DNA of 64,000 bases from Pseudomonadota bacterium (GCA_039800105.1 JBDLRI010000098.1:4427-68426); one strand, 5' to 3'; shown: positions 9,066-60,171, counted from the stretch's first letter. Numbers and translations: made by a program. The notes: generated from the letters alone by a model not told the origin.

Positions 9066-9883
9066 GCACGCTCCGAATCGCCCTCGCCCAGGTGGACGTC
9101 GCCTGGCACGACCGCCCCGGGAACCTCGCGCGGGCCGAAGCGCTCGTCGCGCGGGCCGCGTCCCGGGGGGCACGCCTCGTCGTCCTCCCGGAGATGTTCG
9201 CCGTGGGGTTCACGATGGACGCGGCGCAGGCCGATCCCCACGACGGTCCCACCGCCGCCTGGGCGCGGGAGGTCGCCGCGCGGCACGACGTCGCGCTGAT
9301 CCTCGGGGTACCGGAAGTGCCGGCTCCTGGGGCGGAGGGGGACACCCCCTCCGCAACGCCTCCCCCGGACCGCGCCCGACCCCTCAACGTCGCGATGCTG
9401 GTGCGACCGGACGGCGGCACGGAGCGCTACGCGAAGACCCACCTGTTCTCCTTCTCCGCGGAGAACGCGCATTACCGGTCCGGCGACCGCATCGTCACCT
9501 GGAACATCGACGGCGTGCGGGTGACGCCCCTCATCTGCTACGACCTGCGCTTCCCCGAGCCGTTCCGCCTCGCGGCCGACGACACCGACCTGTTCGTGGT
9601 CATCGCCAGCTGGCCGGAGCGTCGCGCGGCCCACTGGCGCCTGCTGCTGCGGGCCCGCGCCGTGGAGAACCAGGCATGGGTCGCGGGTGTCAACCGCGTC
9701 GGCACCGGGGATGGCCTCGCATACCGCGGCGACAGCGCGCTCATCGACCCCTGGGGCGAGGTGCACGCCGAGGCGGCGGAGCAGGAGGCCCTCCTGGTCC
9801 TGGACGTGGACGCCTCCGGCGTGACGTCCGCCCGGGCCGCGTTCCCGCCGCTCCGCGATCGCCGCAGCGACCTCCGTCGCTAG
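9062..9883 (+). CDS. Carbon-nitrogen hydrolase (omega-amidase / YafV-like nitrilase superfamily)
   Basis: 273 aa. Has RIALAQVDV, LVVLPEMF (catalytic Glu), KTHLF (Lys) and PLICYDLRFPE (Cys). ATGA overlap with the upstream aminotransferase. Carries repeat copy 1 as an internal insert, PGAEGDTPSATPPP. Confidence 0.85.
   Translation: MSTLRIALAQVDVAWHDRPGNLARAEALVARAASRGARLVVLPEMFAVGFTMDAAQADPHDGPTAAWAREVAARHDVALILGVPEVPAPGAEGDTPSATPPPDRARPLNVAMLVRPDGGTERYAKTHLFSFSAENAHYRSGDRIVTWNIDGVRVTPLICYDLRFPEPFRLAADDTDLFVVIASWPERRAAHWRLLLRARAVENQAWVAGVNRVGTGDGLAYRGDSALIDPWGEVHAEAAEQEALLVLDVDASGVTSARAAFPPLRDRRSDLRR
9328..9366 (+). repeat. GC-rich hairpin repeat, copy 1 (GGAGGGGG/CCCCCTCC subfamily)
   Basis: TGGGGCGGAGGGGGACACCCCCTCCGCAACGCCTCCCCC. 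Lies inside the C-N hydrolase CDS and is read as GAEGDTPSATPPP. Confidence 0.9.
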
Positions 9884-11307
9884 CCGACGGCGAGCGCGCC
9901 CACCCGCGCCGCGAGGTCGGTGCGCAGCACGCCCTCGGGGTCCACGCGCGCTCGGAGGGACGCGAGCGTGGCGAGGCGGTCCTGACCCCACGCGCGGCCG
10001 AAGTCCTGCGGCCGCATGGTCAGGTCCTTGGCGGGGTAGAAACGCCCGCCCGCCTCGCACACGAGGTCGTTGAGGTCGTGGCACAGCCGGAACAGGTCCG
10101 CGCGGTTGGAGGCCGTCACGGGGAAGTCCATGGCGAGGCTGTAGCCATCGAGCGCGTGCGACAGGAGAAAGTCGTCGGGCCGGTGGCGCTTGAGCACCCC
10201 GAGGTAGCTCACGAGGCCCGCGGCCTGCGTCCGCGCCAGGATCGTGCGCAGCGTCTCACGCGCCGTCTCCTTCGGCAGGAAGGGCTGGTACTGGATGAAC
10301 CCGCCCGGCTCGTAGGCGCTGCGAAAGCCCGGCACGTAGTCCAGCAGGAACTGGAACGCGACGTGCGCCTGCAGGTACGGCGCGCGCGGCCCCATCGCCG
10401 ACGCGAGGTACTTGCCGGTGTTGAGCAGCCCCATGCCCGCGTTGAAGCTGAAGAGCCGCAGGATCTTCGGCACCAGCGCCTTGGGCACGCCGAGGATGTG
10501 CCCCGGCAGATCCTGCCGCTCCGGCGCCAACATGGCGGCGCCATCCGGGTCCTCGTCGCCGTGGAGGTACACCGCGCGATGCGCCTGGCCGCGCCCCAGG
10601 CCGCTCCCGCCCGCGATGCAGTCCACCCAGCTCACGAGGTAGTCGCTGTCGCCCGTGTGGCGGTCGAACACCTCGAACTGCGCGTCCAGCGACGGCGCGG
10701 GGATCTGCCAGACGCGCATGCGCCCGGAGCCGATGCGCTTGAGCTGCAGGCGGATGCGCGTGAAGGCGCCGAGCGTGCCGAAGCTGCCCACCGCCGCGCG
10801 GAACAGCGCCGGATCGTCCTCGCGGGAGATCCGACGCACCACGCCGTCCGGGGTGACGAGATCCGCGTCGAGGATGCTGTCCCCGGTGCCGCCGACCTTG
10901 TAGTGATTCTTGCCGTGCACGTTCATCGCGGCGCACCCGGCGAGGGTCGCGTGCATCGTCCCCGGCACCACCGTCGGCCACCAGCCGTGCGGCAGCACGT
11001 GACGCCACAGGTCGCCGATGGTGACGCCGGGCTCCACCTCCACGATCCCACGCTCGCTGTCCAAGGACAGGATCCGGTTCATGCCCATCACGTCCAGCAC
11101 GACGCCGCGCGTGTTCAACGACGCGTCGCCGTAGCTGCGCCCGTTCGCCCGTAGGCCCACCGGGATGCCCTCCGTGCTGGCGCGGCGGAAGACCTCGGCG
11201 ACCTCGGCCGCATCGCGGGGCCGCACGGTCGGCGAGGCGGCACGCACCACGAACCCGTACCCGTCGAACACCTTGCGCGGCGCGAGGCCGAGCGGACGGG
11301 CGGCCAT
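9880..11307 (-). CDS. FAD-linked oxidase (PCMH-type FAD-binding domain), DprE1-like
   Basis: Start moved to ATG at 11307 (MAARPLG), which overlaps the upstream stop as TGATG. Has GLRANGRSYGD, VVPGTMHATLAGCAAMNVHGKNH and FGTLGAFT. By-eye resemblance to decaprenylphosphoryl-ribose oxidase motifs. Confidence 0.8.
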   Translation of the reverse strand: MAARPLGLAPRKVFDGYGFVVRAASPTVRPRDAAEVAEVFRRASTEGIPVGLRANGRSYGDASLNTRGVVLDVMGMNRILSLDSERGIVEVEPGVTIGDLWRHVLPHGWWPTVVPGTMHATLAGCAAMNVHGKNHYKVGGTGDSILDADLVTPDGVVRRISREDDPALFRAAVGSFGTLGAFTRIRLQLKRIGSGRMRVWQIPAPSLDAQFEVFDRHTGDSDYLVSWVDCIAGGSGLGRGQAHRAVYLHGDEDPDGAAMLAPERQDLPGHILGVPKALVPKILRLFSFNAGMGLLNTGKYLASAMGPRAPYLQAHVAFQFLLDYVPGFRSAYEPGGFIQYQPFLPKETARETLRTILARTQAAGLVSYLGVLKRHRPDDFLLSHALDGYSLAMDFPVTASNRADLFRLCHDLNDLVCEAGGRFYPAKDLTMRPQDFGRAWGQDRLATLASLRARVDPEGVLRTDLAARVGALAVG

Positions 11308-12041: not shown

Positions 12042-12064
12042 GACGGATTCCTCGCGCGGGCGCC

Positions 12065-12871: not shown

Positions 12872-12934
12872 TCTTCCGACAACATTATCCAGCTTGAACT
12901 TTACTTTTTCAGATTCGCGGCCTAGGGTGGCCGC
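12872..12934. promoter_or_regulatory. AT-richer divergent promoter region between gluQ and the ALDH-like gene
   Basis: The only conspicuously low-GC stretch nearby (ttcttccgacaacattatccagcttgaactttactttttcagattcg). A possible -35/-10 pair is TTTACT-N17-TAGGGT on the + strand. Confidence 0.3.
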
Positions 12935-14416
12935 ATGCACGACGCCCTTCCGCTCCTCCTCGCCGGCACCCCCACGCACACACCCCTCCTTGCCCCGGTG
13001 GTCCGCCCGTGGGACGGACAGCCCGTTCACGACGTATCGCGGGCGGGCATGGAGCACGCGGACCGCGCCGTCGCCGCCGCCGTCCACGAAGCGGTGGTCC
13101 TGCGCCGCACGACCCCGCGCACCCGCGCGGCACACCTCGCCGCCGCGGCGCGGCGGCTCGACGCCGACGCCGTCGCGCTCGTGCGCGCGCTCGTCGACGA
13201 GGTGGGCATGCCGATCGACCACGCCCGCATGGAAGCCGCCGAGGCCGTGGCCATCGTACGCGCGTGCGCCGACGCTGCGGCGTCGCTCGATCCGCAGGCG
13301 ACGGGCGGGGCCTGGGACGACCCGGTGGCACCCGCGCGCGTCCTTCGCCGCGGCGTGCCGCGGGGCCCGGTGTTCGCCATGCCCACGCCGCAGGCACCCC
13401 TCGCCTCGTTGGCGCTGCGGCTGGGTGCCTGCCTGGCGGCGGGATGCCCCGCGGTGGCCGCCGTTCCCGCGCACGCGCCCGGGGCCGCACTCCTGCTCGG
13501 TGCGGCGCTCGGGGCCACCGAGGGCACCGGGGCGCTGGCCCGTGCCGTCAGCGTGCTCCCGTGCCGCTCGGACGTGCTGGACGCCCTGGTGACCGACCGA
13601 CGCTTCGCGACGCTGCTCGTGGGACGCGGCGGACGGCTCGTGTCACGCGCGCGCACGGGACGTCGCGAGGTGGTGGTGGAGCCCGGCGAGCAGCACGACG
13701 TGCTCCTCGGCCCGGACGCCGATGTCGTCGATGCCGCCGCACGGATCGCCGCCCGCGCGTGGAGCTGGGCGGGTCAGGCATCCGCCGGCATCCAACGGAT
13801 CCTCGTGCCGCGCGACCGGCTCGTGCCCGCCCGCGACGCGCTGGCAGCCGCGATCGCCGGCCTGCAGCCACGGGACCCGTCGCTCCCGGGGACCGTCTGT
13901 GGCCCGATGGCCGATCCCTGGCGCGCCGCCCGGTATGACAGCTGGCTGCATGCCGCGCTCGGCGTGGGCGCACGGGCCGTGGCGCAGGGGTGCGCCCCGG
14001 ACGCGCCGGTCGGTGCCCGGACGCGGCTCCCGGTCCTGCTGGAAGCGGAACTGCGTCCCGAGGTGCACGGCGCATCGGGTCCCGCGGTGGTGCTCCATCC
14101 GGTGCGTTCGACCGAGGAGGCCCTGGCCCTGCTCGGCCGCGACGCCGGCAGCCCCCACGCCGTCGGTGTGTTCACCCGCAGTGCAGCGCGCCTGTTCCAG
14201 ACGCTCGATCGCCTCGACGGCACCGTGCTCGTGCACGACGATCACCCCGGCACCGCGGGGGGCGTTGCGGGGGGTGGAACCCCCCGCCCCAGCCACGACA
14301 TCCGCACGCCGACCCGGCTCCGCGGCGAGCGGCCCGAAGTCCTGATCGCCTCGCTCCTCGACGTACGGACCCTGGTGTACGGACGCGCGGTCCCCGTCGA
14401 CGTCCGCGTCGCGTAG
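12935..14416 (+). CDS. Aldehyde dehydrogenase superfamily protein, apparently lacking the catalytic Cys
   Basis: 493 aa. Follows the ALDH layout, with VVVEPGE (ELGG-like) and GPDADV. The GQxCxA motif reads GQASAG. Repeat copy 2 is inserted near the C-terminus (GGVAGGGTPRP). Confidence 0.65.
   Translation: MHDALPLLLAGTPTHTPLLAPVVRPWDGQPVHDVSRAGMEHADRAVAAAVHEAVVLRRTTPRTRAAHLAAAARRLDADAVALVRALVDEVGMPIDHARMEAAEAVAIVRACADAAASLDPQATGGAWDDPVAPARVLRRGVPRGPVFAMPTPQAPLASLALRLGACLAAGCPAVAAVPAHAPGAALLLGAALGATEGTGALARAVSVLPCRSDVLDALVTDRRFATLLVGRGGRLVSRARTGRREVVVEPGEQHDVLLGPDADVVDAAARIAARAWSWAGQASAGIQRILVPRDRLVPARDALAAAIAGLQPRDPSLPGTVCGPMADPWRAARYDSWLHAALGVGARAVAQGCAPDAPVGARTRLPVLLEAELRPEVHGASGPAVVLHPVRSTEEALALLGRDAGSPHAVGVFTRSAARLFQTLDRLDGTVLVHDDHPGTAGGVAGGGTPRPSHDIRTPTRLRGERPEVLIASLLDVRTLVYGRAVPVDVRVA
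14257..14291 (-). repeat. GC-rich hairpin repeat, copy 2
   Basis: + strand is GGGGGGCGTTGCGGGGGGTGGAACCCCCCGCCCCA. Lies inside the ALDH-like CDS. Confidence 0.9.
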
Positions 14417-19167: not shown

Positions 19168-19848
19168 TTATCCGGCCGGCGCCGGCACGCCCGGTGGCGA
19201 GGCCCACGTTCCGCGATGCACGGGCAGGCCATCGCGCTTGCAGACCCGTTCGCGTCGCGACAGCACCGGCCCGTACCAGGGCGGCCCCTCGACCGCGGTC
19301 CACGACGCGAAGCAAGCGCACGCCCAGCGGAAATAGCCCTCGACGTCGGTGGCGAGGTGGACGACGCCGCCCGGCCGCAACACCCGCGCGAGGTCCGCCA
19401 CGAGGGCCGGCGTGAGCAGGAGGTGACGCGGGTTGCGCGTGGGCGTGGGAAAGAGGATGTAGGCGGCGTCGAGGCAGGCGTCCGGCAGGACCGCCGCCAG
19501 CACCGTGCGGGCGTCCGCGCGCACGAGCATGCAGTTTTCCGGCGCATGCGGCGCGGCGGCGAGCACCCGCGCCTCGCGGATCTCCAGGCCGAGCCACCGC
19601 ACGTCCGGGAAGCGGCGGGCGTGGTCGAGGATGCGCATGCCGTGGTCGAACCCGATCTCCAGCGCCACCCGGGGGGCGTTGCGGGGGGATGCCCCCCCGC
19701 CCCAGGAGGGGTCGACGAAGGACCGCACGGCGTCCCGCGTCGCGCGATGGGCGGGCTGATCGAACAGCAAGCTTCCCTGCAACGCACCGCGCACGCGGTC
19801 GCCGCTGGGATGGTCGAGCAGCGCGGGCGGTTCCCAGGGTTCGGTCAC
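19168..19848 (-). CDS. trmB: tRNA (guanine46-N7)-methyltransferase
   Basis: GTG start at 19848 with AGGAG upstream. Has VALEIGFDHG (SAM motif I), WLGLEIR, ILFPTP and VHLATD. Repeat copy 3 is inserted just before motif I (SWGGGASPRNAPR). Confidence 0.8.
   Translation of the reverse strand: MTEPWEPPALLDHPSGDRVRGALQGSLLFDQPAHRATRDAVRSFVDPSWGGGASPRNAPRVALEIGFDHGMRILDHARRFPDVRWLGLEIREARVLAAAPHAPENCMLVRADARTVLAAVLPDACLDAAYILFPTPTRNPRHLLLTPALVADLARVLRPGGVVHLATDVEGYFRWACACFASWTAVEGPPWYGPVLSRRERVCKRDGLPVHRGTWASPPGVPAPAG
19671..19704 (-). repeat. GC-rich hairpin repeat, copy 3
   Basis: + strand is GGGGGGCGTTGCGGGGGGATGCCCCCCCGCCCCA. Lies inside the trmB CDS. Confidence 0.9.
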
Positions 19849-28997: not shown

Positions 28998-30457
28998 GGG
29001 GGATCCACCACCCGGTGCGGTCCCAGTCCCGCCTGGGTGATCGCCGGCTCGACGACGGACGGGTCCCCGACGAGCACCAGCACGCCCCGCGCGGGATCGT
29101 AGGCCTGCATCGCGGTCCGGACCGCCTCTGCGCCGACCGAGGCGCCGGACTGGAGCGCGCGGTCCAGCTCGCCGGGCGGAAGCCGCGCGACGTGCAGCTC
29201 CGCGAAGAGCTGCGCGATGCTCTCCCGGCCCTCCAGCGCCTCCACGAGATCCTGACGGTACGACGCGCGCGCCTTGCGCAGCTCCTCGGAGGTGATGCCC
29301 TTGCGGATGCCCGCGAGCTCGCCGACGAGATCGACGAGCGCCGGGCCGGTCGCGTCGGCCCGCACGCGCGTGGTGATCGCCAATGCGCCGCCGCCCGGGA
29401 GCGACAGGGGCGCCGCCCGCACGCCGTAGGTGTAGCCTCGCTTCTCGCGGAGCAGCGCGTTGAGGCGCGAGGTGAAGGTGCCGCCGAGGACGACGGTGCC
29501 GATTCGCGCGGCGTCGGCCTCGGGCGCCCCGAGCGCGTGCCCGGGGAAGTACCAGGCGATCATGGTCTGCGCGGCGCCGGGCTTCGGCACGACGAGGGTC
29601 CGGATGGCCTCCGGGGTCGGCGGCGGCACCGCGGGGCGCGGACGTGTGCCCACGGCCCAGGGCGAACCGAGGCGCGGTTCGAGCAGGGCCACGATCTCCT
29701 CGCGGGCGACGTCACCGGCCACGGTGACCGTGGCGCCGTCGGCGTTCCAGGATTGCTTCCATCGGCCGCGCACGCTGGCCGCGTCCGCCGTCGAGAGACC
29801 GGACACCGTCCCGTCCGTGGGCCGGCCGTAGGGATGCGTGGCCCCGAAGGCGGCCGACCAGACGGTGCGCGTCGCGACGGAGACCGGCTCGTCGCGGTCG
29901 GCCACCAGTGCCGAGACGGCGAGCCCGCGCTCCCGGGCCACGTCCTTCCTGCCGAAGGCCGGGCGCAGGATCATGTCCGCGACACGGTCGAGCGCCTCCG
30001 GCAGGCTGGACTTCCGGACGGTGAGGGTCAGGGTCGAGGCACTCCGCCCCGTCTCGACCTCGACCGTGGCGCCGAGCCGCTCGAGCGCCGCGGTGAAGGC
30101 GGCGGCGTCCAGCGCGCCCGCCCCCTGCGTGAGCATGCGATCCGTGAGCCACTGGAGGCCCTCTCCGCCGGACGCGTCGAGCGACGAGCCGCCGGGAACC
30201 GCGACGACGACCGACACGAGCGGAAGGGACGGCCGAGGGACCACCCAGACGTCCACACCGTTGGAAAGCCGGGCCACCTCGGGCGTCGGCGCAGAGAACG
30301 GCGCCGCGGGGCGCACGGCCGGACGATCCGGAAACGCGGGCGCCTCGACGGGCAACGGGGGGGGCGTTGCGGAGGGGGTGCCCCCCTCCGCCCCGGAGGC
30401 CGGACCCAACGCAGGTTCGGCGTGGACGAGCGACGCGAGCAGGACGAGCAGGATCAC
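28994..30457 (-). CDS. M16-family peptidase subunit lacking the HxxEH motif (likely non-catalytic partner), secreted
   Basis: 487 aa. GTG start with a GTGA overlap. Signal-like N-terminus [14 protein letters not shown]16 C-terminal-type domains, but no HxxEH seen. Repeat copy 4 follows directly after the signal peptide (SGAEGGTPSATPPP). Confidence 0.8.
   Translation of the reverse strand: MILLVLLASLVHAEPALGPASGAEGGTPSATPPPLPVEAPAFPDRPAVRPAAPFSAPTPEVARLSNGVDVWVVPRPSLPLVSVVVAVPGGSSLDASGGEGLQWLTDRMLTQGAGALDAAAFTAALERLGATVEVETGRSASTLTLTVRKSSLPEALDRVADMILRPAFGRKDVARERGLAVSALVADRDEPVSVATRTVWSAAFGATHPYGRPTDGTVSGLSTADAASVRGRWKQSWNADGATVTVAGDVAREEIVALLEPRLGSPWAVGTRPRPAVPPPTPEAIRTLVVPKPGAAQTMIAWYFPGHALGAPEADAARIGTVVLGGTFTSRLNALLREKRGYTYGVRAAPLSLPGGGALAITTRVRADATGPALVDLVGELAGIRKGITSEELRKARASYRQDLVEALEGRESIAQLFAELHVARLPPGELDRALQSGASVGAEAVRTAMQAYDPARGVLVLVGDPSVVEPAITQAGLGPHRVVDPP
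30357..30395 (-). repeat. GC-rich hairpin repeat, copy 4 (GGAGGGGG/CCCCCTCC subfamily)
   Basis: + strand is GGGGGGGGCGTTGCGGAGGGGGTGCCCCCCTCCGCCCCG. Lies inside the M16 partner CDS. Confidence 0.9.
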
Positions 30458-36563: not shown

Positions 36564-36654
36564 GGGCGTTCTCCGAGGGGATTGCGGGGATACGTTCTCC
36601 CAAACGGTAGACACGGTGCTCATCCACGTCCATGCCGGCGGCGAACGACGCGCC

Positions 36655-38295
36655 ATGTCCCTCGCGGAGTTCGAGGAGGAGGTATGCGCGGGCACCATCG
36701 GCCCGGAGACGCCCGTGGACGCAGGCGCCGAGGTACTCCCCGCGCGGGAGCTCGCCGCCTGGCGCGCCGCCTGGGACAGCCCTGCCGCACGCGTGCGCCG
36801 CGCACTCGCGAACCCGGCGGTCCCCTGGGCCACGGCGCTCGTCGTCGGCATCCCGTGGCGCATCCACGCGTGGGTGATCGGCCGCGGACGTGAGGCGTGG
36901 GAGACGGCGCTGGTGAAGCTCCCCGCCGCCATCACCGAACGCGGGGAGGCCTGGCGGGTGGTGTCCTACGCGCTGCTGCACGGGGACGTGGGACATGCGC
37001 TCAGCAACCTCCTCTTCCTGGCGCTGTGCGGGGTCGTGCTGGAGACCATCGTGGGGCCGTGGGCCCTGCTCGGGCTGTTCACGGTGAGCGTGGCGGCCGG
37101 CGGACTGCTCTCGACGCTCGGCAGCGACACCCCGGCACTCGGCGCCTCGGCCGCCGATTTCGGCTTCCTCGCGGCGACCGCGATCGCCGGGTGGCGGTAC
37201 GGCGATCTCGCGCCACGCCGGCTGCGGCCGCTGCTCGGCGGAATCATGGCGGTGTACCTCATCCAGGCGCTCTGGAACGGGCTTCACGACACGCACGTGG
37301 ACAACCTCGCGCACCTGGGCGGCGCGTTGGCGGGCGGCGCGCTCATGGCGGCGCTGCGTCCCGCGGCGCTGCCGGAATGGCGTCGCCGGAACCGGGTCGC
37401 GGTCGCGACGGCGCTCGCGGTGTGCGCCGTGACGACGTGGGCCGTGGTGCGCTGGCCCACGCCGCGGGTGGCGGTCGACGAGGACGGCCTCGTCGCGGAG
37501 CGTCCGGCCCGGTGGGGCGTGGGCTACGCGCCGAGCGGCGCACGCGCCTGGGCCTCCCCGCTCGGGGATGCGTGGATGGTCGTGACCACGCGCGACGCCG
37601 GACGTCTCCCCACGCCGGACGAGGACCTCGTGCAGGAGACGCTGCGCCCGTTCAAGGACGCGCGCGTCACGACGTCGACCGGCCGCGCGGATTCACCGGA
37701 GGGCGTGCGCGTCGTGGCCCGCTACACGCGGCGCGACGGCCCGCGGCGGCTGGTGCTGCGCGCGTGGACGCGCGGGCACCTGCGGCACGAGGTCTCGCTC
37801 GACCTGCCGGCCGACGACTCGCACCGGGCCCATCTCGCCGCCCTGGTGGACGCCGCGCGGCTGGTGCCGCCGGACGCGGTGACCGAGGCCGCCACGGCGC
37901 CGGACACCGCGCGCGGGGACGTGGCGCGCGCGCGGGCCGCGTCGAACGCCGGCGACCTCCCGGCCGCGGTGCGGTCCCTCGATGCGGCGCGCACCCGGGC
38001 GCCGGGCGACGTGGTCGCGTGGGTCGCCACCCTCGAGGTGCTCGGCGAATGGCGGGATCCCCGGGCACTGGCGATGGCGGACGACGCGATCGCGCGGTTC
38101 CCCGACGACCGACGCGTGACGGTGGCGGCCACATCCGCGCTGCACGCGCTGGGCCACGCCGACCGCGCCGCCACGCTGCTCCGGGAGGCCTGGGCCGCGC
38201 ACACGGGCGACGCCGACCTCGCGGCGGCCGCGGAGGCGCTGGACGTCGACCTCGCCCGGACGGGGGCGTTGCGGGGGATGTCCCCCGCCCCATGA
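36655..38295 (+). CDS. Rhomboid-family intramembrane serine protease fused to a TPR-like C-terminal region
   Basis: Start at ATG 36655 (MSLAEFEEE). Has WRVVSYALLHGDVGHALSNLLFL, GASAADFG (GxSxxxF catalytic Ser) and AHLGGALAG (catalytic His). Ends with repeat copy 5 (GALRGMSPAP-stop). Confidence 0.75.
   Translation: MSLAEFEEEVCAGTIGPETPVDAGAEVLPARELAAWRAAWDSPAARVRRALANPAVPWATALVVGIPWRIHAWVIGRGREAWETALVKLPAAITERGEAWRVVSYALLHGDVGHALSNLLFLALCGVVLETIVGPWALLGLFTVSVAAGGLLSTLGSDTPALGASAADFGFLAATAIAGWRYGDLAPRRLRPLLGGIMAVYLIQALWNGLHDTHVDNLAHLGGALAGGALMAALRPAALPEWRRRNRVAVATALAVCAVTTWAVVRWPTPRVAVDEDGLVAERPARWGVGYAPSGARAWASPLGDAWMVVTTRDAGRLPTPDEDLVQETLRPFKDARVTTSTGRADSPEGVRVVARYTRRDGPRRLVLRAWTRGHLRHEVSLDLPADDSHRAHLAALVDAARLVPPDAVTEAATAPDTARGDVARARAASNAGDLPAAVRSLDAARTRAPGDVVAWVATLEVLGEWRDPRALAMADDAIARFPDDRRVTVAATSALHALGHADRAATLLREAWAAHTGDADLAAAAEALDVDLARTGALRGMSPAP
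38262..38292 (-). repeat. GC-rich hairpin repeat, copy 5
   Basis: + strand is GGGGGCGTTGCGGGGGATGTCCCCCGCCCCA, overlapping the TGA of the rhomboid gene by one base. Confidence 0.9.
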
Positions 38296-42491: not shown

Positions 42492-42534
42492 GGGCAGGCG
42501 GGGTGACCACACGTCCTCCACCTACGCCGCGTGC

Positions 42535-42556
42535 GTGACGGCCCGGTGACGACCGC
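42535..42556 (-). promoter_or_regulatory. Candidate Pho-box-like direct repeat upstream of pstS
   Basis: GTGACGGcccgGTGACGAccgc is a 7-bp direct repeat with 11-bp periodicity, the spacing typical of PhoB/OmpR-family sites. It lies 44-65 nt upstream of the pstS ATG. The sequence differs from the E. coli CTGTCAT consensus. Confidence 0.3.
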
Positions 42557-42593
42557 GCGACGTCTCGCGACCCGGCCGGATACCGTGCGGCGC

Positions 42594-45500
42594 ATGCGGC
42601 GCGTCTCCGTCCTCCTCGGCCTCCTGCTCGCGCGTGCCGCGGCGGCCGCCGACTACGACCCCGGGCTGCGCTGGAGGACCCTGCAGACCGAGCACTTCCG
42701 CGTGCTGTTCCACGACGGCGAGGCTGCGCTGGCGCGGGACATGGCCACCCGGGCCGAGCAGGCCTTCGCGGCCCTCGCACCGACGGTCGGCGACGTCCCC
42801 GCGGAGCGCGTGGAGCTCGTGCTGGTCGACTGGACCGACGATGCCAACGGCTACGCCACGGTGGTCCCTCGCAACACGATCGTGGTGTTCGTCACCGCAC
42901 CGACCCCCGACTCGTCGCTCGGTTTCTACGAGAACTGGAACGAGGGCATCGTCACGCACGAGCTGACGCACATCCTGCACATCGACACGGTCGGCGGCCT
43001 GCCCCGGCTGGCCCGCACGCTGCTGGGACGAATCGTCAGTACGCACCAGGCCTCGCCGGGCTGGATCGTGGAGGGCTACGCCACCTTCGAGGAGACGCGC
43101 TTCACCAACGCCGGACGCGGACGGTCCGCGGTCGTGGACATGCTCAAGCGCGCCGCGGTGCTCGAGGACCGCTTTCCCCCGCTGGGCAACCTCGACGGGT
43201 TCCAGTCGAGGCCTCCCGGCGGACAGCTGCGGTACCTGTGGGGCCAGGACTTCCTGCGCTGGATCGCCGACCACGCCGGGGAAGACGCGTGGCGGGCCTG
43301 GGTCGACGCCTACGGCAGAGGCCTTCCCTACCTGCTGCCCGCACGGCGCCTGTTCGGCGGGTCGTTCGCGGAGCTCCACGCCGCATGGCGCGCCGACGCC
43401 GAGGCGACCGCCCGCGCGCAGGCCGACGCCATCCGGGCCGAGGGGACCACGGAGCCGCGCTGGTTGACTCCGCCCGGCCGGGCGTGCGGCAACGCCGCGT
43501 GGAAGCCGGGGACGTCCACCACCCTCGCGGTCGGGTGCAGCGATCCGCGGGAGGGCACCCACACCTGGGAGATCCACACCGACGCGACCCCCTCCCGGCG
43601 GCTCGTGAAGGGACTGACCGCGCGCCGCGTGGCCTGGCGCCCGGACGGAAAAGCGCTGGCCGTCGTGCGCACGCACGCCGTGCGGGTCTACAACCGCTTC
43701 GACGACGTGTACCTCTACGACCTCGCCGCACGGTCGCTCCGGCCCCTCACGCGCGACGCGCGGGCGACCGATCCCGCGTTCAGCGCCGACGGCGAGCGGG
43801 TCTACGTCGTGCAGAACGCCCTGCAGGACACGCGGGTTGCGCGCGTGTCCGCCGACCAGCGCCTCCTGCCGGTCCTCGGCAACCCCGACTTCGGCGCCCC
43901 CCGGGAGGACCAGGCGCCGCGGCCGATCCACCTCGCGGGTCCCGCGCCCAGTCCGGACGGCCGCCTGCTGGCCGTGAGCGCGTGGCGCGACGGCCTGCGC
44001 GATCTCTGGCTCACCACGGCCGACGGGGCGCCCGTGGCGCGCCTGACCGCCGACGCCGCGATCGACCGCGACCCCGCGTGGTCTGCCGACGGCGCCTGGC
44101 TCTACTTTTCCAGCGATCGCGGCGGAAAGCCCGACATCTACGCGCTGGAGGTGGCCACGCGCGACCTGTGGCGGGTCACGAACGTGCTGACCGGCGCGTG
44201 GGGACCGGCTCCCAGTCCCGACGGCACGCAGCTCGCGCTCACGGTGCACGGGACGGACGGGGCGCGCGTGGGGGTGCTTCCGATCGACCGCAGCAGGTGG
44301 ACCCCGCAGGGTCGGCTCCCGGACCTCGCCGGGGACACGCCGCTCCCCTCCCCGGCCGCGGACGCCGCACGGCCCGCGCCCGGCGTCGTGGCCGCGGACT
44401 CCGGCGGGGGCGTTGCGGGGGCAGCCGCCCCCGCCCCAGAGGACTACACCCCCTGGTCCACGCTGTTCCCGCCCCGGTGGTGGATGCCGGGCACCTTCCT
44501 GACCACCACCGGCGAGACGCAGGGCCTCTACGCGACGGCCTCCACCGGCGCGCGCGACACGCTCGGCTGGCTGGGCTACGGCGGCACCCTGACCTACCGC
44601 ACCGATGCCCGCTTCCTGGGCGGCAGCGGCTCGGTGAGCGTCAACCGCTGGCGCACCGTCGGCGCCGTGGGCGCCAGCACGGCGGCCTGGCCCTTCGGCG
44701 ACATCGTGCGGGCCGTGCCCGACCCGCCCGGTGGCGGCACCACGCTCCCCGGCATCGAGACGACGCGGCGCCGGTACTGGGAGCGTCGCACGCGCGCCTG
44801 GGCCAGCGTGGGCGCACCGCTGGACGAGACACGCGCGTGGTCGGCGGGGTGGTCGGGCACCTGGCGCAGCCCCCTCGATCCCCTGCCCGCGGACGCGTAC
44901 CATCCCGCGGTCCCGACGCGCGGCTACTTTTCGAGCGTGACGGCGGGCTGGCGCAGCGGCATCGCCATCTCCGCGCCACTGGCCATCTCCCCGGAGGACG
45001 GCCGCAGCCTCGCCGTCGGCGTGCAGGCGACGTCCTCGCTGCTGGGCAGCCGCACCTTCGACGATACCGGCGCCACGGTCCCCTTCGACCAGCTCCAGGC
45101 CACCGCGGAGGGCCGCTGGTTCACGCCGGTTCCCCGCCTTCCCAACCACGTGATCGCCGCGCGGCTCGCGGGCGGCGCGTCCCTCGGGGACCGCTTCCGC
45201 TACGGCAGCTTCCGGCTCGGCGGCAGCTTCACGGAGGGCGGGCTCACGGTGGTGCCCACCGAGTGGCGCATGCTGCGCGGCTTTCGGCCCGCCACGGCGA
45301 GCGGCGAATGGTACTGGCTGGGCTCCGGGGAGTACCGCTTTCCCCTCGCGCGTCCGGACCGCGGCTTCGGCATCCTGCCCGCGTTCCTGCGCAACGTGAG
45401 CGGGGCGGCGTGGGTCGACGCGGGCGATGCCTTCAACGCGCCCGACGAGGCCAGCGCGGCGTCCACCCTCGTCGGCGTCGGCATGGAGCTGCGCGCGCAG

Positions 45501-45630: not shown

Positions 45631-47664
45631 ATGCACATGTTGACCCTGCTGTTCCTGCTCGGACTGCCTCCTGGGGCGGAGGGGGCCACCCCCTCCGCAA
45701 CGCCTCCCCCGCTCGCATGGCAGGACGCCAACGCCGCGGGGGACTGCACCGGCGTCCTTGCGGCCCTGCCCGCTCCGGGCACCGTCCTGGAACGCCTCGC
45801 CGCCGGCGACTGCCTCGCGCGGACCGGGCATCCGGCCCGTGCCCTCGCCCTGCTCGGCGACCCCGCGGGGCCGGCGGGAGTCTTCCGGCCGTGGGTGCGC
45901 CTCGCCCGCGCCCGGGCCCTCCTGGCGCTGGAGCGCCCGGCGGACGCGGTGGCCGCGCTCGACGGAGTGACCCTCGCCGGCTCGGAAGCCACGCTGCTGC
46001 GCGGCGAGGCCCTGGTCCGCGCCGGACGCGGAGGCGAGGCCCGGGAACCGCTGCGCGCCCTGCTCGACGGCCCCGATGCCGCCCCGGCGCGGGCGTGGCT
46101 CGCGGAGGGGGCCGCCCGACGCGGGGACACCGAGGCCGCCGTGGCCGCCTGGCGTGCCGTGTGGACGCGGCATCCCACCTCGCCGTGGTCCGCACGTGCC
46201 GAGTCGGCCCTCAAGGCACTGGGCGCGCCCGTGCCGGACACCGCGACGGACGCCGGCCGCGCCCTCGTGCGGGCACGGGCGGACGCGCTGCTCGCGCAGC
46301 GGCAGGCCAGCCTCGCGCTGCCGCTGCTGCGGGAGTTGGACGCGCGCGTGCCGTTCACCACGGACGCCGACGCACGCACGATGGCCCAGGCCTGCGCGGA
46401 CGCCCGCCAGCACGCCGACGCGCTCGCGTGGCACGCCCGCGCCGGTTCCGCCACGCGTTCGGCCGCGCAGGCCTTCGCCGAGGCGCTCGCGACCGCGCGT
46501 TCCGGCGACTATGCCGCGGCAGCCGCGCGCTACCGCGCCCTCGCCGCGCGATGGCCCGACTCGCCCCAGGCCGACGAGGCCACGTGGAAGATCCCGTGGA
46601 TGGACTACGACGCCGGTCGCTTCGCCGACGCCGAGGCGGGCATGGACTCCTACCTCGCGGCGCGGCCCGGCGGCCGCTTCGCCAGCGACGCCCGGTGGTT
46701 CCGGGCCTGGGCCGCGTGGCGGCGCGGAGACGTCGCGGCGGCGCTTCCCCGCCTGGAGGCCGTCCGCGCGGCGGAACCGGGCTCCGAACGCGCCACCGCC
46801 GCCGCCTACTGGATCGCCCGCGCGCGGGAGGACCGTGCGAGCCTCCGGGCGCTCGTCGCGACCGACACGCTCTACGGCTACCTCGCGGCGGAGCAGCTCG
46901 GGGTGCGCTTCCCCGTCCCGCCCGAGGCCCGTGCGCCCGCGGTGCCGGAGGCGTTCCTGGCGGCGCGGCCGGAGCTGCGCACCGGGATCGCCCTCGCCGA
47001 CGCCGGTTTCGCGGCATGGTCGCGGCCCCTGCTCGCCCGGCACGTGGACGCCGCGCGCGCGGCCGGGGAGACCACCGCCGTCGCGCTGGCGCACGCGCTC
47101 CTGCGCGCGGAGGACTTCAAGGGAGCACAGGCGCTCGCGCGTCCGTACTGTTCCCGCTCCCGTGCGGCCGCCACCGCCTGCCTGCCCCGGCCGCACGGGG
47201 GCGCCGTCGCGGCGATGGCGGCCCGCACGGGCCTCCCGCCGCTGCTCCCCTACGCCATCATGACGGTGGAGAGCGGGCTGGACCCGGGCGTCACCTCCCC
47301 GGTGGGGGCGCGCGGCCTCATGCAGCTCATGCCAGAGCTGGGCGAGCGCCTGGCGACGGACGAGATCGCCGGGTTCGGCATCGATGACCTCTACCGCGCG
47401 GGCGTGAGCGCGCGCCTCGGCACCAAGGAGCTCGGGCGCATGTACGCGGAGCGCCGTGACGGCCCCGTGCGACCGGTGCTCCCGCTCGTCGTCGCCGGCT
47501 ACAACGGCGGCCCGCCGGCGGTGGAGCGCTGGCTGCGCGGCTACGCGGAGCCACCCGCCGCCGACCGCTTCGCCGAGGACATCGCCTTCACCGAGACCCG
47601 CCGCTACGTGCGTCGCGTGCTCGGCGTCTACATGCAGTACCGGCGCACCTACGGCGATCCCTGA
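45631..47664 (+). CDS. slt: Soluble lytic murein transglycosylase (Slt70-like: superhelical N-domain + SLT domain)
   Basis: 677 aa with a signal-like N-terminus. SLT catalytic region IMTVESGLDP...ARGLMQLMP...AGYNGGP. Repeat copy 7 follows directly after the signal peptide (PGAEGATPSATPPP). Confidence 0.85.
   Translation: MHMLTLLFLLGLPPGAEGATPSATPPPLAWQDANAAGDCTGVLAALPAPGTVLERLAAGDCLARTGHPARALALLGDPAGPAGVFRPWVRLARARALLALERPADAVAALDGVTLAGSEATLLRGEALVRAGRGGEAREPLRALLDGPDAAPARAWLAEGAARRGDTEAAVAAWRAVWTRHPTSPWSARAESALKALGAPVPDTATDAGRALVRARADALLAQRQASLALPLLRELDARVPFTTDADARTMAQACADARQHADALAWHARAGSATRSAAQAFAEALATARSGDYAAAAARYRALAARWPDSPQADEATWKIPWMDYDAGRFADAEAGMDSYLAARPGGRFASDARWFRAWAAWRRGDVAAALPRLEAVRAAEPGSERATAAAYWIARAREDRASLRALVATDTLYGYLAAEQLGVRFPVPPEARAPAVPEAFLAARPELRTGIALADAGFAAWSRPLLARHVDAARAAGETTAVALAHALLRAEDFKGAQALARPYCSRSRAAATACLPRPHGGAVAAMAARTGLPPLLPYAIMTVESGLDPGVTSPVGARGLMQLMPELGERLATDEIAGFGIDDLYRAGVSARLGTKELGRMYAERRDGPVRPVLPLVVAGYNGGPPAVERWLRGYAEPPAADRFAEDIAFTETRRYVRRVLGVYMQYRRTYGDP
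45672..45710 (+). repeat. GC-rich hairpin repeat, copy 7 (GGAGGGGG/CCCCCTCC subfamily)
   Basis: TGGGGCGGAGGGGGCCACCCCCTCCGCAACGCCTCCCCC. Differs from copy 1 only in the loop. Confidence 0.9.
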
Positions 47665-52246: not shown

Positions 52247-54502
52247 ATGGCGCCGTCGCCGCTGCACGCGCGCGCCCATGCACGGCGACTGGCCACGCGG
52301 CGCATCCTCGCGCGGGTTCTCGGTTCCACCGCCGCGGGCGCGTGGGACGACGCGCTCGCATACGCCACCACGTCCCGCCCGAATCTCGCGGAGCGCGTGG
52401 AGCGGGGGCTGCCCGGCATGCTCGCGCGCTTCCCGCCGGCGCGACACGTCGAGGCCGGCGCGCTGCTCCGGGAGGTCCTCGCGTCGCGGCCCGATCTGCT
52501 CGACGTGGCGCTCGAGGAGCTCCCGGAGCTGGCGCTCGGGATGGACCCGCCGGCGCTGGGGCGTTTCGTGCGCCACGCGCTCCGCCAGCGTGACGCGGGC
52601 GCCTGCCTGGCGCGGGCCACGTCGCGCGCGGTCGCGTCCGCCCACGCAGCGACCGGAACCGTGCCGCTCGAGGCGCTGCGGCCGATGCTCGCGCGCTACA
52701 TCGCGGCGCATGCCGGGGTGCCCGTGCGCCTCGAGGAGGGGGCCCCCGGCCTGCCGCGCCCCACCCACGTGGCGCTGCCGGCGCACATCGAACTGGGCCC
52801 GGGCCGGGAGGAGGAGGCGCGCGCGCACTACCTCGGCCTCGCGCTGCTCGCGGCGGCGCACCTCGAGTTCGGCAGCCGCACCCTGAGGCTCGACACCCTG
52901 GGCCCGCCCGACGGCGGTGCCTGGCCCGACGCCCACGACGGCGAGGACACGCTCGACGTGTTCCTGCGGGCCTTTCCGATGCCCTCGCTGGCGCGGGATC
53001 TCTACGAGGCGGTGGAAGGTGCGCGCGTGCTCCGTGCCGTGCGGCAGCGGTACCCCGCCGCGGCCGAGCGCACGGCCGCCGCACGTGCGTGGGCGCTCGC
53101 CCGGCGTGCTCCGTCGCCCCTCACCCCGCGACTGGATGCGCTGGTTCGTGGGGCGGGGGGGCATCCCCCCGCAACGCCCCCCGCGTCGGGATCCGACGAT
53201 GTCGCGGTGCAGGCCTGGGTCGCGCGCTGGGGTCCCGGGTTCCATGCGGCGCGCGACGGTACCGCGGAGGACTCGGCACGCTGGACCGCACGCGTCTACG
53301 CGGAGGCGCAGGCCAGCCTCCCACGCGCCCCGCACCGCGCGACGCCGGCCCCTCCCCCAACGGCCACGCCTCGTCCGGGCCGACCCGCCGCGCCGCGGGA
53401 CCTGCGGCACCCCGCGCCCCCGGCCGCGCCGCACGTGCCCCACGCACCACGCAGCACCGCCGGGGACGCTGACGCCATCGACGCGGAGGACGGGCGAGGC
53501 GCGTTCGTGGAGCGCCACCGTGACCCCGCGGCGACGCGCACCGCGACGCGTGCGCCCGGCTCCGAGCCGCTCCGGGAGCTTCCGACGGTCGGAGAGGCGG
53601 TGGTGACGATGCTCCCGGAGTGGGATTGCGAACTCGGGGACCACCGTCCCGACTGGGTGCGCGTCGTGGAGCGCCGCGTGGCGCCGGGTCCCCGCGCGTT
53701 CGCCGACGACGTGCGCCATCGGGAGGCCGCACGGATCGACCGGCTCCGTCGTGCCTTCGAGGCGCTCCGACCGGACGCACGCGCCCGTCGGCGGCACGAA
53801 CCCGACGGGGACGACCTCGACGTCGACCGCGCCGTCGAGGAGGCCCTCGGACGGCGCGCGGGCGCGCCGCTGCCGTCGCGCGCCCACGTCCGCACCGTGC
53901 GGCTCACCCGGGACGTCGCCATCGGCTTCCTGCTCGACGTCAGCAGCTCGACGAACGAGAGCCCCGACGGCTCGGGCGCGCGCGTCATCGACGTGCAGCG
54001 CACGGCCCTGATCGTGGCGGGGGACGCGCTCGCGGCCTCGGGGGACCCGTTCGCCGCGTGGGCCTACTCGGGCGCGGGCCGCGGCCGCGTGGACGTGTAC
54101 GTCGCGAAGGACTTCCACGATCCCTGGGACGACCTCGCCGCCCGCCGCGTCGGCGCCCTTCGCCCGAGCATGGAGAATCGAGACGGCGCCGCAATCCGCC
54201 ACGCCGCGCGACGCATGGCCGCGGCACCCGCCCGCCACCGACTGCTCGTGGTGCTCTCCGACGGGCGGCCGCTCGACTGCGCCTGCCCCGTGTACCGCGA
54301 CCGCTACGCGGTGGAGGACACCCGCGCCGCCCTCCGAGAGGCGCGGGCCATGGGCGTGCATCCCTTCTGTGTGACGGTCGACGCGCAGGCGCGCAGCTAC
54401 CTGGCGGACATGGCGGGCACGGTGTCCTACACGGTGATCGAGCGCGCCGATCAGCTCCCGGAGCGCCTGGTCGACGTGGTGCGGCGGCTCACCGCGCGCT
54501 GA
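52247..54502 (+). CDS. CbbO/NorD-like protein with C-terminal von Willebrand factor A domain
   Basis: 751 aa. Has LPEWDCELGDHRPDWVRVVE, the CbbO/NorD signature. The VWA domain has the MIDAS-like motif LLDVSSSTNES and later LVVLSDGRPLD. Repeat copy 8 lies in the N-terminal region (RGAGGHPPATPPA). Confidence 0.8.
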   Translation: MAPSPLHARAHARRLATRRILARVLGSTAAGAWDDALAYATTSRPNLAERVERGLPGMLARFPPARHVEAGALLREVLASRPDLLDVALEELPELALGMDPPALGRFVRHALRQRDAGACLARATSRAVASAHAATGTVPLEALRPMLARYIAAHAGVPVRLEEGAPGLPRPTHVALPAHIELGPGREEEARAHYLGLALLAAAHLEFGSRTLRLDTLGPPDGGAWPDAHDGEDTLDVFLRAFPMPSLARDLYEAVEGARVLRAVRQRYPAAAERTAAARAWALARRAPSPLTPRLDALVRGAGGHPPATPPASGSDDVAVQAWVARWGPGFHAARDGTAEDSARWTARVYAEAQASLPRAPHRATPAPPPTATPRPGRPAAPRDLRHPAPPAAPHVPHAPRSTAGDADAIDAEDGRGAFVERHRDPAATRTATRAPGSEPLRELPTVGEAVVTMLPEWDCELGDHRPDWVRVVERRVAPGPRAFADDVRHREAARIDRLRRAFEALRPDARARRRHEPDGDDLDVDRAVEEALGRRAGAPLPSRAHVRTVRLTRDVAIGFLLDVSSSTNESPDGSGARVIDVQRTALIVAGDALAASGDPFAAWAYSGAGRGRVDVYVAKDFHDPWDDLAARRVGALRPSMENRDGAAIRHAARRMAAAPARHRLLVVLSDGRPLDCACPVYRDRYAVEDTRAALREARAMGVHPFCVTVDAQARSYLADMAGTVSYTVIERADQLPERLVDVVRRLTAR
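53149..53182 (+). repeat. GC-rich hairpin repeat, copy 8
   Basis: TGGGGCGGGGGGGCATCCCCCCGCAACGCCCCCC. Lies inside the CbbO/NorD-like CDS. Confidence 0.9.
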
Positions 54503-55135: not shown

Positions 55136-55145
55136 ATGAAGCCGC

Positions 55146-55457: not shown

Positions 55458-55482
55458 GGCCGTGTCGCGCCGACCGGGCCCT

Positions 55483-58584: not shown

Positions 58585-60171
58585 GGGGGCTCCGGCATGC
58601 CGCGATCGCTTCTGGGGCGGGGGCTCGGGCCGCCCCCGCAACGCCCCGGCCACCCCGGCGTCGAACCATCCGTGCAGGAACCAGGCTTCTCCCGAGCGGA
58701 AGACCCACGCGCGGCGCTCTCCCACCGCAACACACCAGTAATCGCGGGTCCAGCCCGGGAGACCGTCGCGCCCCTCGCGCCCGCCCACCAGGCGCTCGGG
58801 CCCGTCGGCGCGCAGGATCCCCAGCCAGGCACCTCCGAGCTGGATCGCCACGGGTCGCTCCTGCGGATCGCGGCGCACCCGCACCACGACGGGCTCCCGA
58901 CACAGGACCGCCGGGCGCGGGCGTGCCTCCGCCGGCGCGAGATGCGCCTCCGCGGGGTCGGGCCGCAGGGGGGACTCCCCGGTCTCCTCCGGGGGTGCAT
59001 CGGCCGAGGCCCACGGGCGGAAGCGCCATTCGGCGTCCGGGGTCCAGCTGCTGCAGGGCTCCCACACGCCCACCGCGTCGGTCCCGAGGGCATCCTGAAG
59101 GCGCGCGCACACCTCCGGGAGCGGCTCCTGCGCCTCCGGGCGGTCCAGGAGGCCGAGCTGCACGGGCGCGTGGGCCACGTCACCACACAACCCGACCTCC
59201 ACGGCCACGACCGGTGCCTGGAGCCGCACATGCTCCAGGCGGGCGCGGACCAGCGGAAACAACCGCTCCACGCTGCGTGCGGGGCGTCCGAGCCGCACGG
59301 CGACGTGGACGGTCGGCGACGCTCCCTCCAGCTCCAGGGCGAGCTCGAGCCGCACGGCGGAGCGTCCGGCGCGGACGAGATCCCGCGCCAGGTCCCGCAG
59401 GAGGGCGTGCACCACGAAGATCACCGCGTCGAGCTGCTCCACGGGCTCCAGGAGATCCGTGCGGTGGCGGAGCGCCTCCACCGGCCGCACCACGAGAGGA
59501 GCGACCGGGAGCCGTGGCCCCGGGTCCCCCCGCGCGCGGGCGTGCAGCGCCACGACGGCGGCGCCGTGGCGTCGCACCAGCACCGCGGCGGGCAGCCGCG
59601 CAAAGGCGCCACAGGTCCGGACCCCGGCCAGCTCGAGGTCCGCACGCAGCTCCGCGGGCAGATCGAGCACCTCGACCGGCAGCGGTGCCAGGACCCCGGG
59701 GAGCGCCTCCGCCGACACCACCGCGTCGGCGTCCAGGCTCCGCGCGAGCAGGAGGGCCTCGTCCGGACCGGGAGCGTGCACGATCCGGGCGCGATGCCCG
59801 AAACCCTCCAGCTCCGCACGCACCGCCGGGCCGACCTCCGGACCCGCGTCGAGGCAGAGCCCGTCCGGGGGTTCGACCCGCACGACGGGGCCATGACGCT
59901 CGAGCAACCTCCCGAGCGCGCGCAGGTCCTCGCGGACGCCCTCCGGATCCAACGTTTCCACATGCACGTCCGGCACCAGCGCGCGGGCGGTGGCGAGGCT
60001 CATGCCCGGCGCCAGCCCCGATGCGCCCGCGCGCAGGCTCGTCGCAAGGACCCGGGGAGCCCCGCGCGTCATCGCCACGACCACGACCGGCGCATCGGGA
60101 AGCCAACCGCCCCGCTCCAGCACGAACCCCGGCAGGTGGATGCCGAGACAGCCGCCGCGTCCCTGCGTCAC
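58585..60171 (-). CDS. imuB: ImuB, Y-family-polymerase-like protein; no stop codon of its own, reads through into dnaE2
   Basis: GTG start at 60171 (GTGA overlap with the imuA stop). Has CLGIHLPGFVLERG...VVVVA....RVLATSLRAGASGLAPGMSLATARAL (Y-family palm-like N-terminus without obvious catalytic acidic residues) and ends ...GEAWFLHGWFD. A 25-codon linker containing repeat copy 9 follows. Confidence 0.78.
58613..58647 (+). repeat. GC-rich hairpin repeat, copy 9 (at the imuB/dnaE2 junction)
   Basis: TGGGGCGGGGGCTCGGGCCGCCCCCGCAACGCCCC. On the coding (minus) strand it is read as GVAGALRGRPEPPPQ. Confidence 0.9.

Follow-up and report, generated by a model that had tools for sequence, protein, structure and literature searches.

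What is the hairpin repeat that recurs nine times in one stretch of high-GC bacterial DNA, and does it belong inside genes, where all of these copies appear to lie? The stretch analyzed (64,000 nucleotides of GCA_039800105.1, JBDLRI010000098.1:4427-68426, labelled Pseudomonadota bacterium and 73.7% G+C; hereafter the window) had been described, in a reading made from the sequence alone (the original prediction), as carrying nine copies of a GC-rich palindromic element, every one embedded in an open reading frame (ORF). We consider it probable that the nine copies belong to a high-copy, non-coding stem-loop family of the repetitive extragenic palindromic (REP) type, hosted by an uncultured high-GC Myxococcota-like lineage, whose copies normally lie 3' of genes and whose in-gene copies are translated passengers.

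A search of the window recovered the nine copies at the positions first reported. The 10-mer CCGCAACGCC occurs exactly nine times, each time within an element, and the pattern GGGGCGGRGN{4,26}CYCCGCAACGCC yielded nine matches, compared to 0.00 expected from 100 dinucleotide-preserving shuffles. Searching the window with two mismatches gave five extra matches against 4.55 expected, so that no further degenerate copies were found above chance, and a suspected partner of the third copy at 19775 was judged not to be an element. An Rfam scan of the window at the gathering threshold gave no match. With TGGGGCGG...CCGCAACGCC defined as forward, four copies lie on the plus strand (9328, 45672, 53149 and 58613) and five on the minus strand (14257, 19671, 30357, 38262 and 44406), a density of 9 per 64 kb. 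The copies and their hosts are listed below, where A-type denotes an A-containing sub-type.

r1, 9328..9366, plus strand: A-type, 10-bp stem, 39 nt; in the C-N hydrolase gene 9062-9883 (+); translated PGAEGDTPSATPP
r2, 14256..14291, minus strand: in the ALDH-like gene 12935-14416 (+), in reverse orientation; translated AGGVAGGGTPRPS
r3, 19671..19704, minus strand: in trmB, 19168-19848 (-), directly N-terminal of the methyltransferase core; translated WGGGASPRNAPR
r4, 30357..30395, minus strand: A-type stem, tail without T; in the M16 peptidase-like gene 28994-30457 (-)
r5, 38262..38292, minus strand: 7-bp stem; last 11 codons (TGALRGMSPAP) of the rhomboid-family gene 36616-38295 (+)
r6, 44405..44438, minus strand: in the gene of a 1030-aa outer-membrane protein, 42531-45623 (+), at the Pro/Ala linker between a PD40 propeller and an Omp85-like barrel (Pfam)
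r7, 45672..45710, plus strand: A-type, 39 nt; codons 14-27 of slt, 45631-47664 (+), after a short hydrophobic N-terminus
r8, 53149..53182, plus strand: residues ~301-312 (RGAGGHPPATPP) of a 751-aa VWA/CbbO-like protein, 52247-54502 (+)
r9, 58613..58649, plus strand: imuB-dnaE2 junction, within a continuous minus-strand ORF, 55483-60525; translated GALRGRPEPPPQ

Window genes were modelled with a codon-usage/GC3 caller trained on the window, and the models were compared with public gene calls. All nine copies fell inside ORFs. Public calls for this contig support the models of the r1, r2, r7, r8 and r9 hosts, and the NCBI call supports that of r4 too. The claim that every copy lies in an ORF thus holds under the best-supported gene models. 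Since the element contains no stop codon in any frame, it is automatic that an ORF stays open across a copy; the informative point is that the downstream frame is preserved. The original prediction had itself cautioned that location in coding sequence alone is weak evidence, and rightly so, as nine of nine in the window is by itself not far from random placement. The window is ~92-97% coding, with convergent gene pairs only 6-19 nt apart (14416/14423, 38295/38315, 47664/47675 and 7217/7231), and therefore has almost no spacer that could hold an intergenic copy. Spacers of relatives at the same junctions measure 80-170 nt (for example 82 nt in locus L093 and 172 nt in L092).

The relatives give a different picture of where the repeat resides. 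We compiled two sets of loci, the first from more distant relatives and the second from closer, metagenomic ones. Scanning one genome per species gave at least 91 loci, mostly from about a dozen high-GC metagenome-assembled genomes (MAGs) labelled Myxococcota, Polyangiaceae, 'Pseudomonadota' and others, plus a few chance matches; one of these loci is syntenic with the window at ~70% identity. A second scan, for the A-containing sub-type (as in r1, r4 and r7), gave at least 120 contigs, nearly all from four NCBI metagenome assemblies. Among the matches listed, the window's gene caller placed 61 of 77 MAG copies in spacers, 12 in ORFs and 4 as partial; 32 of 59 intergenic MAG copies lie between convergent genes, and the head of the element sits ~13-16 nt past a stop codon (median ~15 nt). 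In the metagenome set, 82 of the 148 unique sites listed are in ORFs and 66 are intergenic, and the intergenic copies also follow gene 3' ends, with an orientation bias of 24 to 7 in co-directional contexts. As 0.905 of the MAG loci and 0.929 of the metagenome loci are coding, both sets show strong enrichment in spacers (p = 4e-54 and 4e-36, respectively). The nine of nine in ORFs seen in the window differs from both sets (Fisher p = 6e-7 and 0.011).

These counts show that by default the family resides in short spacers immediately 3' of genes, in many cases where two genes converge. The original prediction had proposed a specifically intragenic family and had named a predominantly intergenic distribution as what would speak against it. 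This has in part been borne out, given the strong enrichment elsewhere in spacers 3' of genes, and the claim has to be given up. The general description of a REP, a high-copy palindrome of 20-40 nt found mainly outside genes near their 3' ends, applies to both sets of relatives, with the window as the exception. The intragenic share within one element family therefore varies widely among related genomes, from ~16% through ~55% to nine of nine in the window.

Copies are typically single, one per 8-kb locus, and they come and go between relatives. At ~70% nucleotide identity, loci L102 and L093 have copies in spacers that are empty in the window, and r6 and r7 are absent from L093 and L094. The two copies of L093, at 3012-3046 and 6610-6643, lie in the r6-type linker and in the slt/RNase III convergent spacer, the latter being empty in the window. 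All members of the 90%-identity clusters carry the same inserts, and no presence/absence polymorphism was found among them. Alignments of the window with L102 and L093 gave no exact empty-site boundaries, because the spacers are too diverged.

Could the genic location in the window be an artefact of gene models? Stops are rare at 74% GC, and copies that are truly intergenic might be overrun by ORFs and longest-start calls. We regard this explanation as unlikely, even though the copies at gene boundaries lend it some weight. Depending on the start, r4 lies behind a signal-peptide-like N-terminus or in the 5' leader: it follows the predicted signal peptide only if translation begins at the GTG at 30457, whose GTGA overlaps the upstream stop (30454-30457). 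The NCBI call of 487 aa includes the element, and the competing JGI call (P0038, 453 aa) begins immediately after it. r5 provides the last 11 codons of its host, with the stop TGA adjoining the element head and the end of the convergent gene 20 nt away, and r9 lies where the imuB-dnaE2 spacer normally is. A GTG directly after r3 is an alternative start of trmB, and 21 of 43 intragenic metagenome copies fall in the first or last 10% of the ORF.

The arguments against an artefact come from the copies within genes. r1 corresponds to residues 89-102, inside a Pfam CN_hydrolase match that runs as one stretch from residue 5 to 258, and the solved homologues 2e11 and 2w1v (PDB) show a gap of ~15 residues exactly there. 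r2 sits 125 nt (40 codons) before the stop of its host. The closest homologue (P0002, 49% identity) is without ~10 residues at this site, but these 40 conserved residues after the element are common to both proteins, including the C-terminal LLDVRTLV; empty-site DNA for r2 is present in L092. Both r6 and r8 are flanked on either side by homologous sequence in one frame. In an alignment of 15 homologues the r6 linker is hypervariable; L094 has no copy there, and in L093 (amino-acid identity 65%) an independent A-type copy lies elsewhere in this linker, in the opposite orientation. No alternative in-frame start exists within 85 codons of slt, the host of r7, and the Slt orthologue of L093 has an ordinary signal peptide and no element. 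Moreover, a gene that ended ahead of an element would need a real stop, and none was found in these frames.

Hosts in the metagenome set point the same way. A Pfam scan of ten of them gave matches for nine, and in seven of these nine, domains lie on both sides of the element. The seven are RecC, an NtrC-type regulator, an M28-PDZ-PD40 peptidase and four proteins counted as two-domain enzyme fusions (epimerase-cytidylyltransferase, homocysteine methyltransferase-MTHFR, flavin monooxygenase-OYE and a DEAD_2 helicase). In an AhpF-like reductase the element lies inside the domain match, and in a MutS host it follows domain V. Several intragenic hosts are DNA repair or replication genes, namely MutS, RecC and a DEAD_2 (DinG-like) helicase (L106, L168 and L190) and ImuB/DnaE2 (r9), which echoes the enrichment of intragenic REPs in such genes reported previously (PMC3733652).

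Thus, genuine in-frame inserts, as originally claimed, are shown at r1 (~15 residues), r2 (~10 residues), r6 and r7, and likewise in real multidomain proteins of relatives (MutS, RecC, AhpF-like and NtrC-type). The further claim that inserts sit at loops, linkers, signal peptides or termini stands for several true in-frame inserts, whereas r4, r5 and r9 are gene-boundary cases. r8 could not be upheld as a length-adding insert, given that distant homologues carry about equal length at this place. The window lineage is shown to hold many copies in genes at permissive places, that is, in surface loops, in inter-domain linkers, behind signal peptides and at termini.

Two of the remaining copies merit description. 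At r3, the Pfam Methyltransf_4 match begins one residue after the element and the TIGR00091 match begins at profile position 18. E. coli TrmB 'REAP-VTLEIGF' aligned to the r3-encoded 'RNAPRVALEIGF', and the r3 insert appears to replace native trmB residues rather than simply adding to them. Within this alignment, the encoded 'RNAPR' stands opposite 'REAP' just ahead of the LEIGFG motif. At r9, a single unbroken ORF of 1562-1680 aa comprises both imuB and dnaE2, with the IMS domain upstream and the PHP domain downstream of the element (Pfam). The element encodes residues 627-638; the DnaE2 profile begins 10 residues after it, position 4 of the error-prone polymerase profile NF004225 aligning to residue 648. 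From the ImuB-like end (...WFLHGWFD) to the DnaE2 start (VELLARSHFSF) there are 28 codons, r9 included, and no stop. Public calls give either a fused protein of 1562 aa or one of 1030 aa starting from VELLARSHF. This implies either a fusion product or an additional, internal start of dnaE2.

The edge of the element can also supply start and stop codons. Where CA comes directly before the head (CATGGGG), CCCCATGA is read on the reverse strand, as in the window at 38290-38295 (r5) and in L042 near 5790, where the same arrangement was found. In one frame this gives the TGA that ends an ORF entering the element (r5 and L042). In several MAG copies it gives ATG, and the gene begins exactly at the element edge. 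For annotation, this means that elements blur gene starts, stops and fusions, as seen for the start calls around r4 and for the imuB-dnaE2 ORF.

How the copies inside genes are translated was assessed on 55 high-confidence intragenic copies. In the forward orientation, the frame giving GAEG/GAGG was used 22 times, GGGG/WGGG 10 times and GRRG 3 times; in the reverse orientation GGVA(E)G was the commonest, (E)ALR(R)G was rarer and RRCGG occurred once. The frame bias favours Gly/Ala/Pro/Ser/Thr peptides. Could selection then act on the peptide, with a Gly/Ala/Pro-rich module such as GAEGxxPSATPPP serving, for example, as a flexible linker, and with the DNA similarity secondary? One peptide frame does recur, in r1, r4, r7 and r8 and in 22 of the 35 forward high-confidence copies. 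However, the same DNA is translated in at least five combinations of frame and orientation, which identifies a DNA-level palindromic repeat and no protein motif, as had been claimed at the outset, and the repeat occurs outside genes as well: close to half of the metagenome copies and most MAG copies are non-coding. Nucleotide identity further extends to synonymous positions, and hairpin and mirror symmetry (see below) would be meaningless for a peptide. We give a protein-level module hardly any credence; that the repeat also lies between genes and is read in several frames has in effect refuted it.

The DNA-level repeat does bear marks of selection where it is translated. The length of the hairpin is 2 mod 3 in 80% of intragenic compared to 60% of intergenic copies (p = 0.003). 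When total length was taken instead, counting from the G-run of the head through the C-run of the tail, its value mod 3 did not differ between intragenic and intergenic copies (p = 0.30), probably because the ends of the unit are ill-defined. Frame use and hairpin length together indicate purifying selection on intragenic copies. The A-type unit of 39 or 42 nt is a multiple of three, and on the same metagenome contigs roughly 58% of A-type copies are intragenic vs. 38% of non-A copies. The intragenic share thus tracks a sub-type of length 39 or 42 nt, suggesting a simple rule for the invasion of genes by a selfish repeat. Intragenic copies are concentrated at protein termini and linkers.

A selected cis-acting function within genes has to be weighed as well: the hairpin, or a triplex, might pause ribosomes or RNA polymerase or stabilize the transcript, in which case the copies would be adaptive. 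Orientation is biased relative to the host gene (54 intragenic copies forward, 28 reverse), intergenic copies in co-directional contexts are split 24 to 7 in the metagenome set and 12 to 7 in the MAG set, many copies lie in inter-domain linkers, and the mirror tail described below is conserved within genes too. Simple tolerance, however, equally predicts positions in linkers and at termini, orthologous genes of relatives have no copy or have copies elsewhere, and the orientation bias could reflect a replication-strand bias of single-strand transposition. The gene-relative bias fits either an RNA-level role or such a replication-strand bias, and in our estimate there is only a slim chance that cis-acting function accounts for the copies in genes.

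We now turn to the build of the unit itself, which is ~34-44 nt long and has more than 85% G+C. It consists, in order, of a head (tTCyT-GGG), a G-rich arm (GCGG(R)G(n), with a G-run of 3-7), a loop, the complementary C-rich arm, AA, and a C-rich tail (CGCC(Y)C(n), usually with G next). The upstream positions of this head are equally conserved in genic and intergenic copies, and the flanks of the copies showed no complementarity or duplication beyond chance. Stems measure 7-12 bp and loops 2-10 nt across the family. The perfect G:C stem of 8-10 bp described originally needs adjusting: the window stems are mostly G:C but span 7-10 bp, and r1, r4 and r7 contain one A:T pair each. The two arms co-vary, both in the length of their runs and where a G is changed to A.

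The tails, originally described as asymmetric, turned out to mirror the 3' arm; equivalently, they are the complement of the 5' arm when both are read in one direction. In 86 copies, the G-run of the arm correlates with the C-run of the tail (r = 0.64, permutation p < 2e-4), and beyond the fixed CGCC, 328 of 365 positions are mirrored, compared to 283 +/- 5 after tails were shuffled among copies. Across 234 copies the modal tail equals the mirror in almost every arm class, and an A in the arm is faced in the tail by T 123 times, by A 9 times and by another base 3 times. The A stands at arm position 5, 6 or 7 depending on the subfamily, and the T shifts along to tail position 5, 6 or 7. Examples of the mirrored T are the window copy at 9328-9366 and those in loci L020, L043, L151 and L152. 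The mirror is imperfect, as a sub-family with a short 8-bp stem retains a 10-nt tail. Minimum-free-energy folds sometimes drew an outer helix that would pair head GGGGCG with tail CGCCCC, or one flank with the other; this fold was rejected, as it leaves the mirrored T positions and the run-length correlation unexplained.

A mirror relation is no product of templated copying and is irrelevant to Watson-Crick pairing, and it therefore points to an intrastrand triple helix, which requires a mirror. We infer from this covariation that the match of tail and arm is the signature of such a triplex. On the C-rich strand it would have C+.G:C and T.A:T triads; on the G-rich strand it would have G.G:C with A.A:T or T.A:T, and would accommodate the T/A alternation at the mirrored position. 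About nine copies have A instead of the mirrored T, consistent with a purine-motif triplex of the G-rich strand. As a comparative signal for a triple helix in nucleic acids, this covariation among both arms and the mirror tail is unusually clean.

A bolder reading, which we put forward tentatively and think more doubtful than not, would make the unit a three-stranded fold whose third segment is held mirror-matched by selection across independent subfamilies. This would constitute natural covariation evidence of an in vivo intrastrand triplex, on single-stranded DNA or on the transcript, that a mobilizing or processing machinery might recognize. One uncultured Myxococcota-like lineage would then have let a triplex element colonize coding sequence at large scale (over half of the sampled sites, and nine of nine in the window), where it would continually supply lineage-specific peptides in linkers and at termini, and even an imuB-dnaE2 gene fusion.

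For the REP-type family that we favour, the following course of events is the most likely. The element would spread by means of a trans-acting enzyme that recognizes the folded single strand, possibly the hairpin together with a third strand. Intergenic copies probably serve as a transcript 3' stem-loop, a role that has been proposed for other REPs (PMC3733652). Copies that land in genes would survive when the frame is kept and the 10-15 encoded residues (Gly/Ala/Pro/Ser/Thr) are innocuous, and the survivors would be translated as passenger inserts.

Several observations weigh against this reading. The inserted unit, a target duplication and mobility are all deduced from presence or absence at ~70% identity. 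Neither the window nor ~1.3 Mb of loci with the element yielded a RAYT/IS200-like gene in a crude tblastn search with three approximate Y1/RAYT-like queries; the sole match lay in the chance locus L037. The hairpins reach only modest thermodynamic z-scores (-2.9 to +0.4), as shuffled sequences this rich in G/C all fold well. The gene caller is home-made and based on codon usage, so that some calls of copies inside ORFs in short contigs may be wrong. At r8, the segment found in homologues (35-39% identity) is poorly conserved but similar in length, so that the element there may add no length. Lastly, no T-run follows the hairpin on either strand, and the element is consequently not a canonical intrinsic (Rho-independent) terminator, a candidate that was rejected for this reason. 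The forward strand continues with AACGCC... and the reverse strand with CCCA(R)GAA, and the T-rich tTCyT precedes the hairpin.

Among described repeats, the closest in layout are tagged REPs. GTAG- and CGTC-tagged REPs occur in over 80 species, mostly after genes and between convergent or co-directional ORFs, and in-frame intragenic REPs have been found in several species and phyla, many of them in repair genes and dnaE2 (Di Nocera et al. 2013, PMC3733652). The CGTC REPs, which have no dedicated transposase, include the Rickettsia palindromic elements (RPEs) RPE-4 and RPE-6 of Rickettsia conorii (PMC3733652) as well as Neisseria dRS3. Like them, the window repeat is a stem-loop of ~30-40 nt whose two ends bear an unpaired tag and a short tail, respectively, and lies mainly after genes with some copies in-frame in ORFs (repair genes and dnaE2 included); no associated transposase gene was found in the loci searched. 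Read on its G-rich strand it runs G-run, CGTT, stem, loop, stem, CCCA, compared to CGTC, 8-9 bp stem, 4-5 nt loop, stem, CCA in a CGTC REP. The analogy to RPEs drawn in the original prediction was hence apt, this layout being that of the CGTC-tagged REPs, RPE-4 and RPE-6 among them.

The differences are nevertheless considerable. The tag is CGTT and not CGTC, TGTC or CCTC, with three of four bases matching; it is present in all window copies and is invariant by construction of the search pattern. Stems start with G:C and C:G, whereas those of CGTC REPs start with A/T pairs; stem and loop lengths range more widely (7-12 bp and 2-10 nt), and the units are single instead of head-to-head dimers. 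An extra G-run 5' of the tag mirrors the stem, and host phylum and GC content are different. Tag, A/T stem base and dimers thus set the two apart, and what agrees is the overall layout and the CCA-like tail (CCCA, then RGAA). With the RAYT-mobilized GTAG REPs and REPINs, the repeat shares high-copy extragenic palindromes 3' of genes, gain and loss between relatives and a presumed single-strand hairpin as the active form; it differs in having neither a GTAG tag (consensus head tTCyT-GGG, consensus tail AACGCC(Y)C(n)G) nor doublets. GTAG or TAG upstream of many MAG copies was considered as a tag and dismissed, as its distance varies and it coincides with predicted stop codons.

RPE-1, reportedly described by Ogata et al. 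in 2000, is said to be an AT-rich element of ~100-150 bp in an obligate intracellular alphaproteobacterium. Similar to the window repeat, it is palindromic, inserted in-frame in many unrelated genes, translated at tolerant surface positions, and present in ORFs with a large share of its copies. The window repeat, with ~34-44 nt and more than 85% G+C, encodes only 10-15 residues; in-frame insertion is thus common to both, and the unit size of 100-150 bp is not. A miniature inverted-repeat transposable element (70-300 bp, with terminal inverted repeats and target-site duplication) was rejected, as the unit is shorter than 45 nt and shows no flank duplication beyond chance.

For the mirror tail, a precedent is found in the TMECO/BoxC/PIT repeats of Enterobacteria, dispersed intrastrand triplex motifs with the TMECO consensus CCCTCNCCC-N3-6-GGGNGAGGG-N3-GGGNGAGGG that fold as a triplex in vitro (Holder et al. 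2015, PMC4666352). Both are G/C-rich, mostly intergenic dispersed repeats, and both combine a pyrimidine arm, a purine arm and a mirroring second purine block, allowing a hairpin with a purine-motif third strand. Three mirror-related blocks are thus present in the window repeat, whereas the TMECO consensus is not. Its sequence is unrelated and its block order reversed, so that on the G-rich strand the third strand comes 5' of the hairpin. The TMECO triplex was demonstrated in vitro, while that of the window repeat is suggested by covariation, and TMECO has not been reported as translated inserts.

Precedents therefore exist for in-frame REPs and for dispersed triplex motifs. The original statement that no equivalent had been described for a high-GC Myxococcota-like genome was too strong in view of the in-frame REPs, dnaE2 included, known from several phyla (PMC3733652). 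New here are the combination of the two, the lineage of the host, the extreme GC content, the large share of intragenic copies and the evidence from covariation. In-frame insertion of the REP/RPE type is thereby extended to a very high-GC, uncultured Myxococcota-like lineage.

Two minor observations concern the MAG loci. A conserved 'KKxxPY' protein motif, encoded on the opposite strand of the flanks, was dropped, as the gene models show 3' ends of unrelated genes there. One element-rich genome of ~73% G+C is deposited as 'uncultured Enterobacteriaceae bacterium binchicken_co286_100' (CAYWGD01...; L001, L003, L005 and others), and this 'Enterobacteriaceae' label is almost certainly a taxonomic mislabel.

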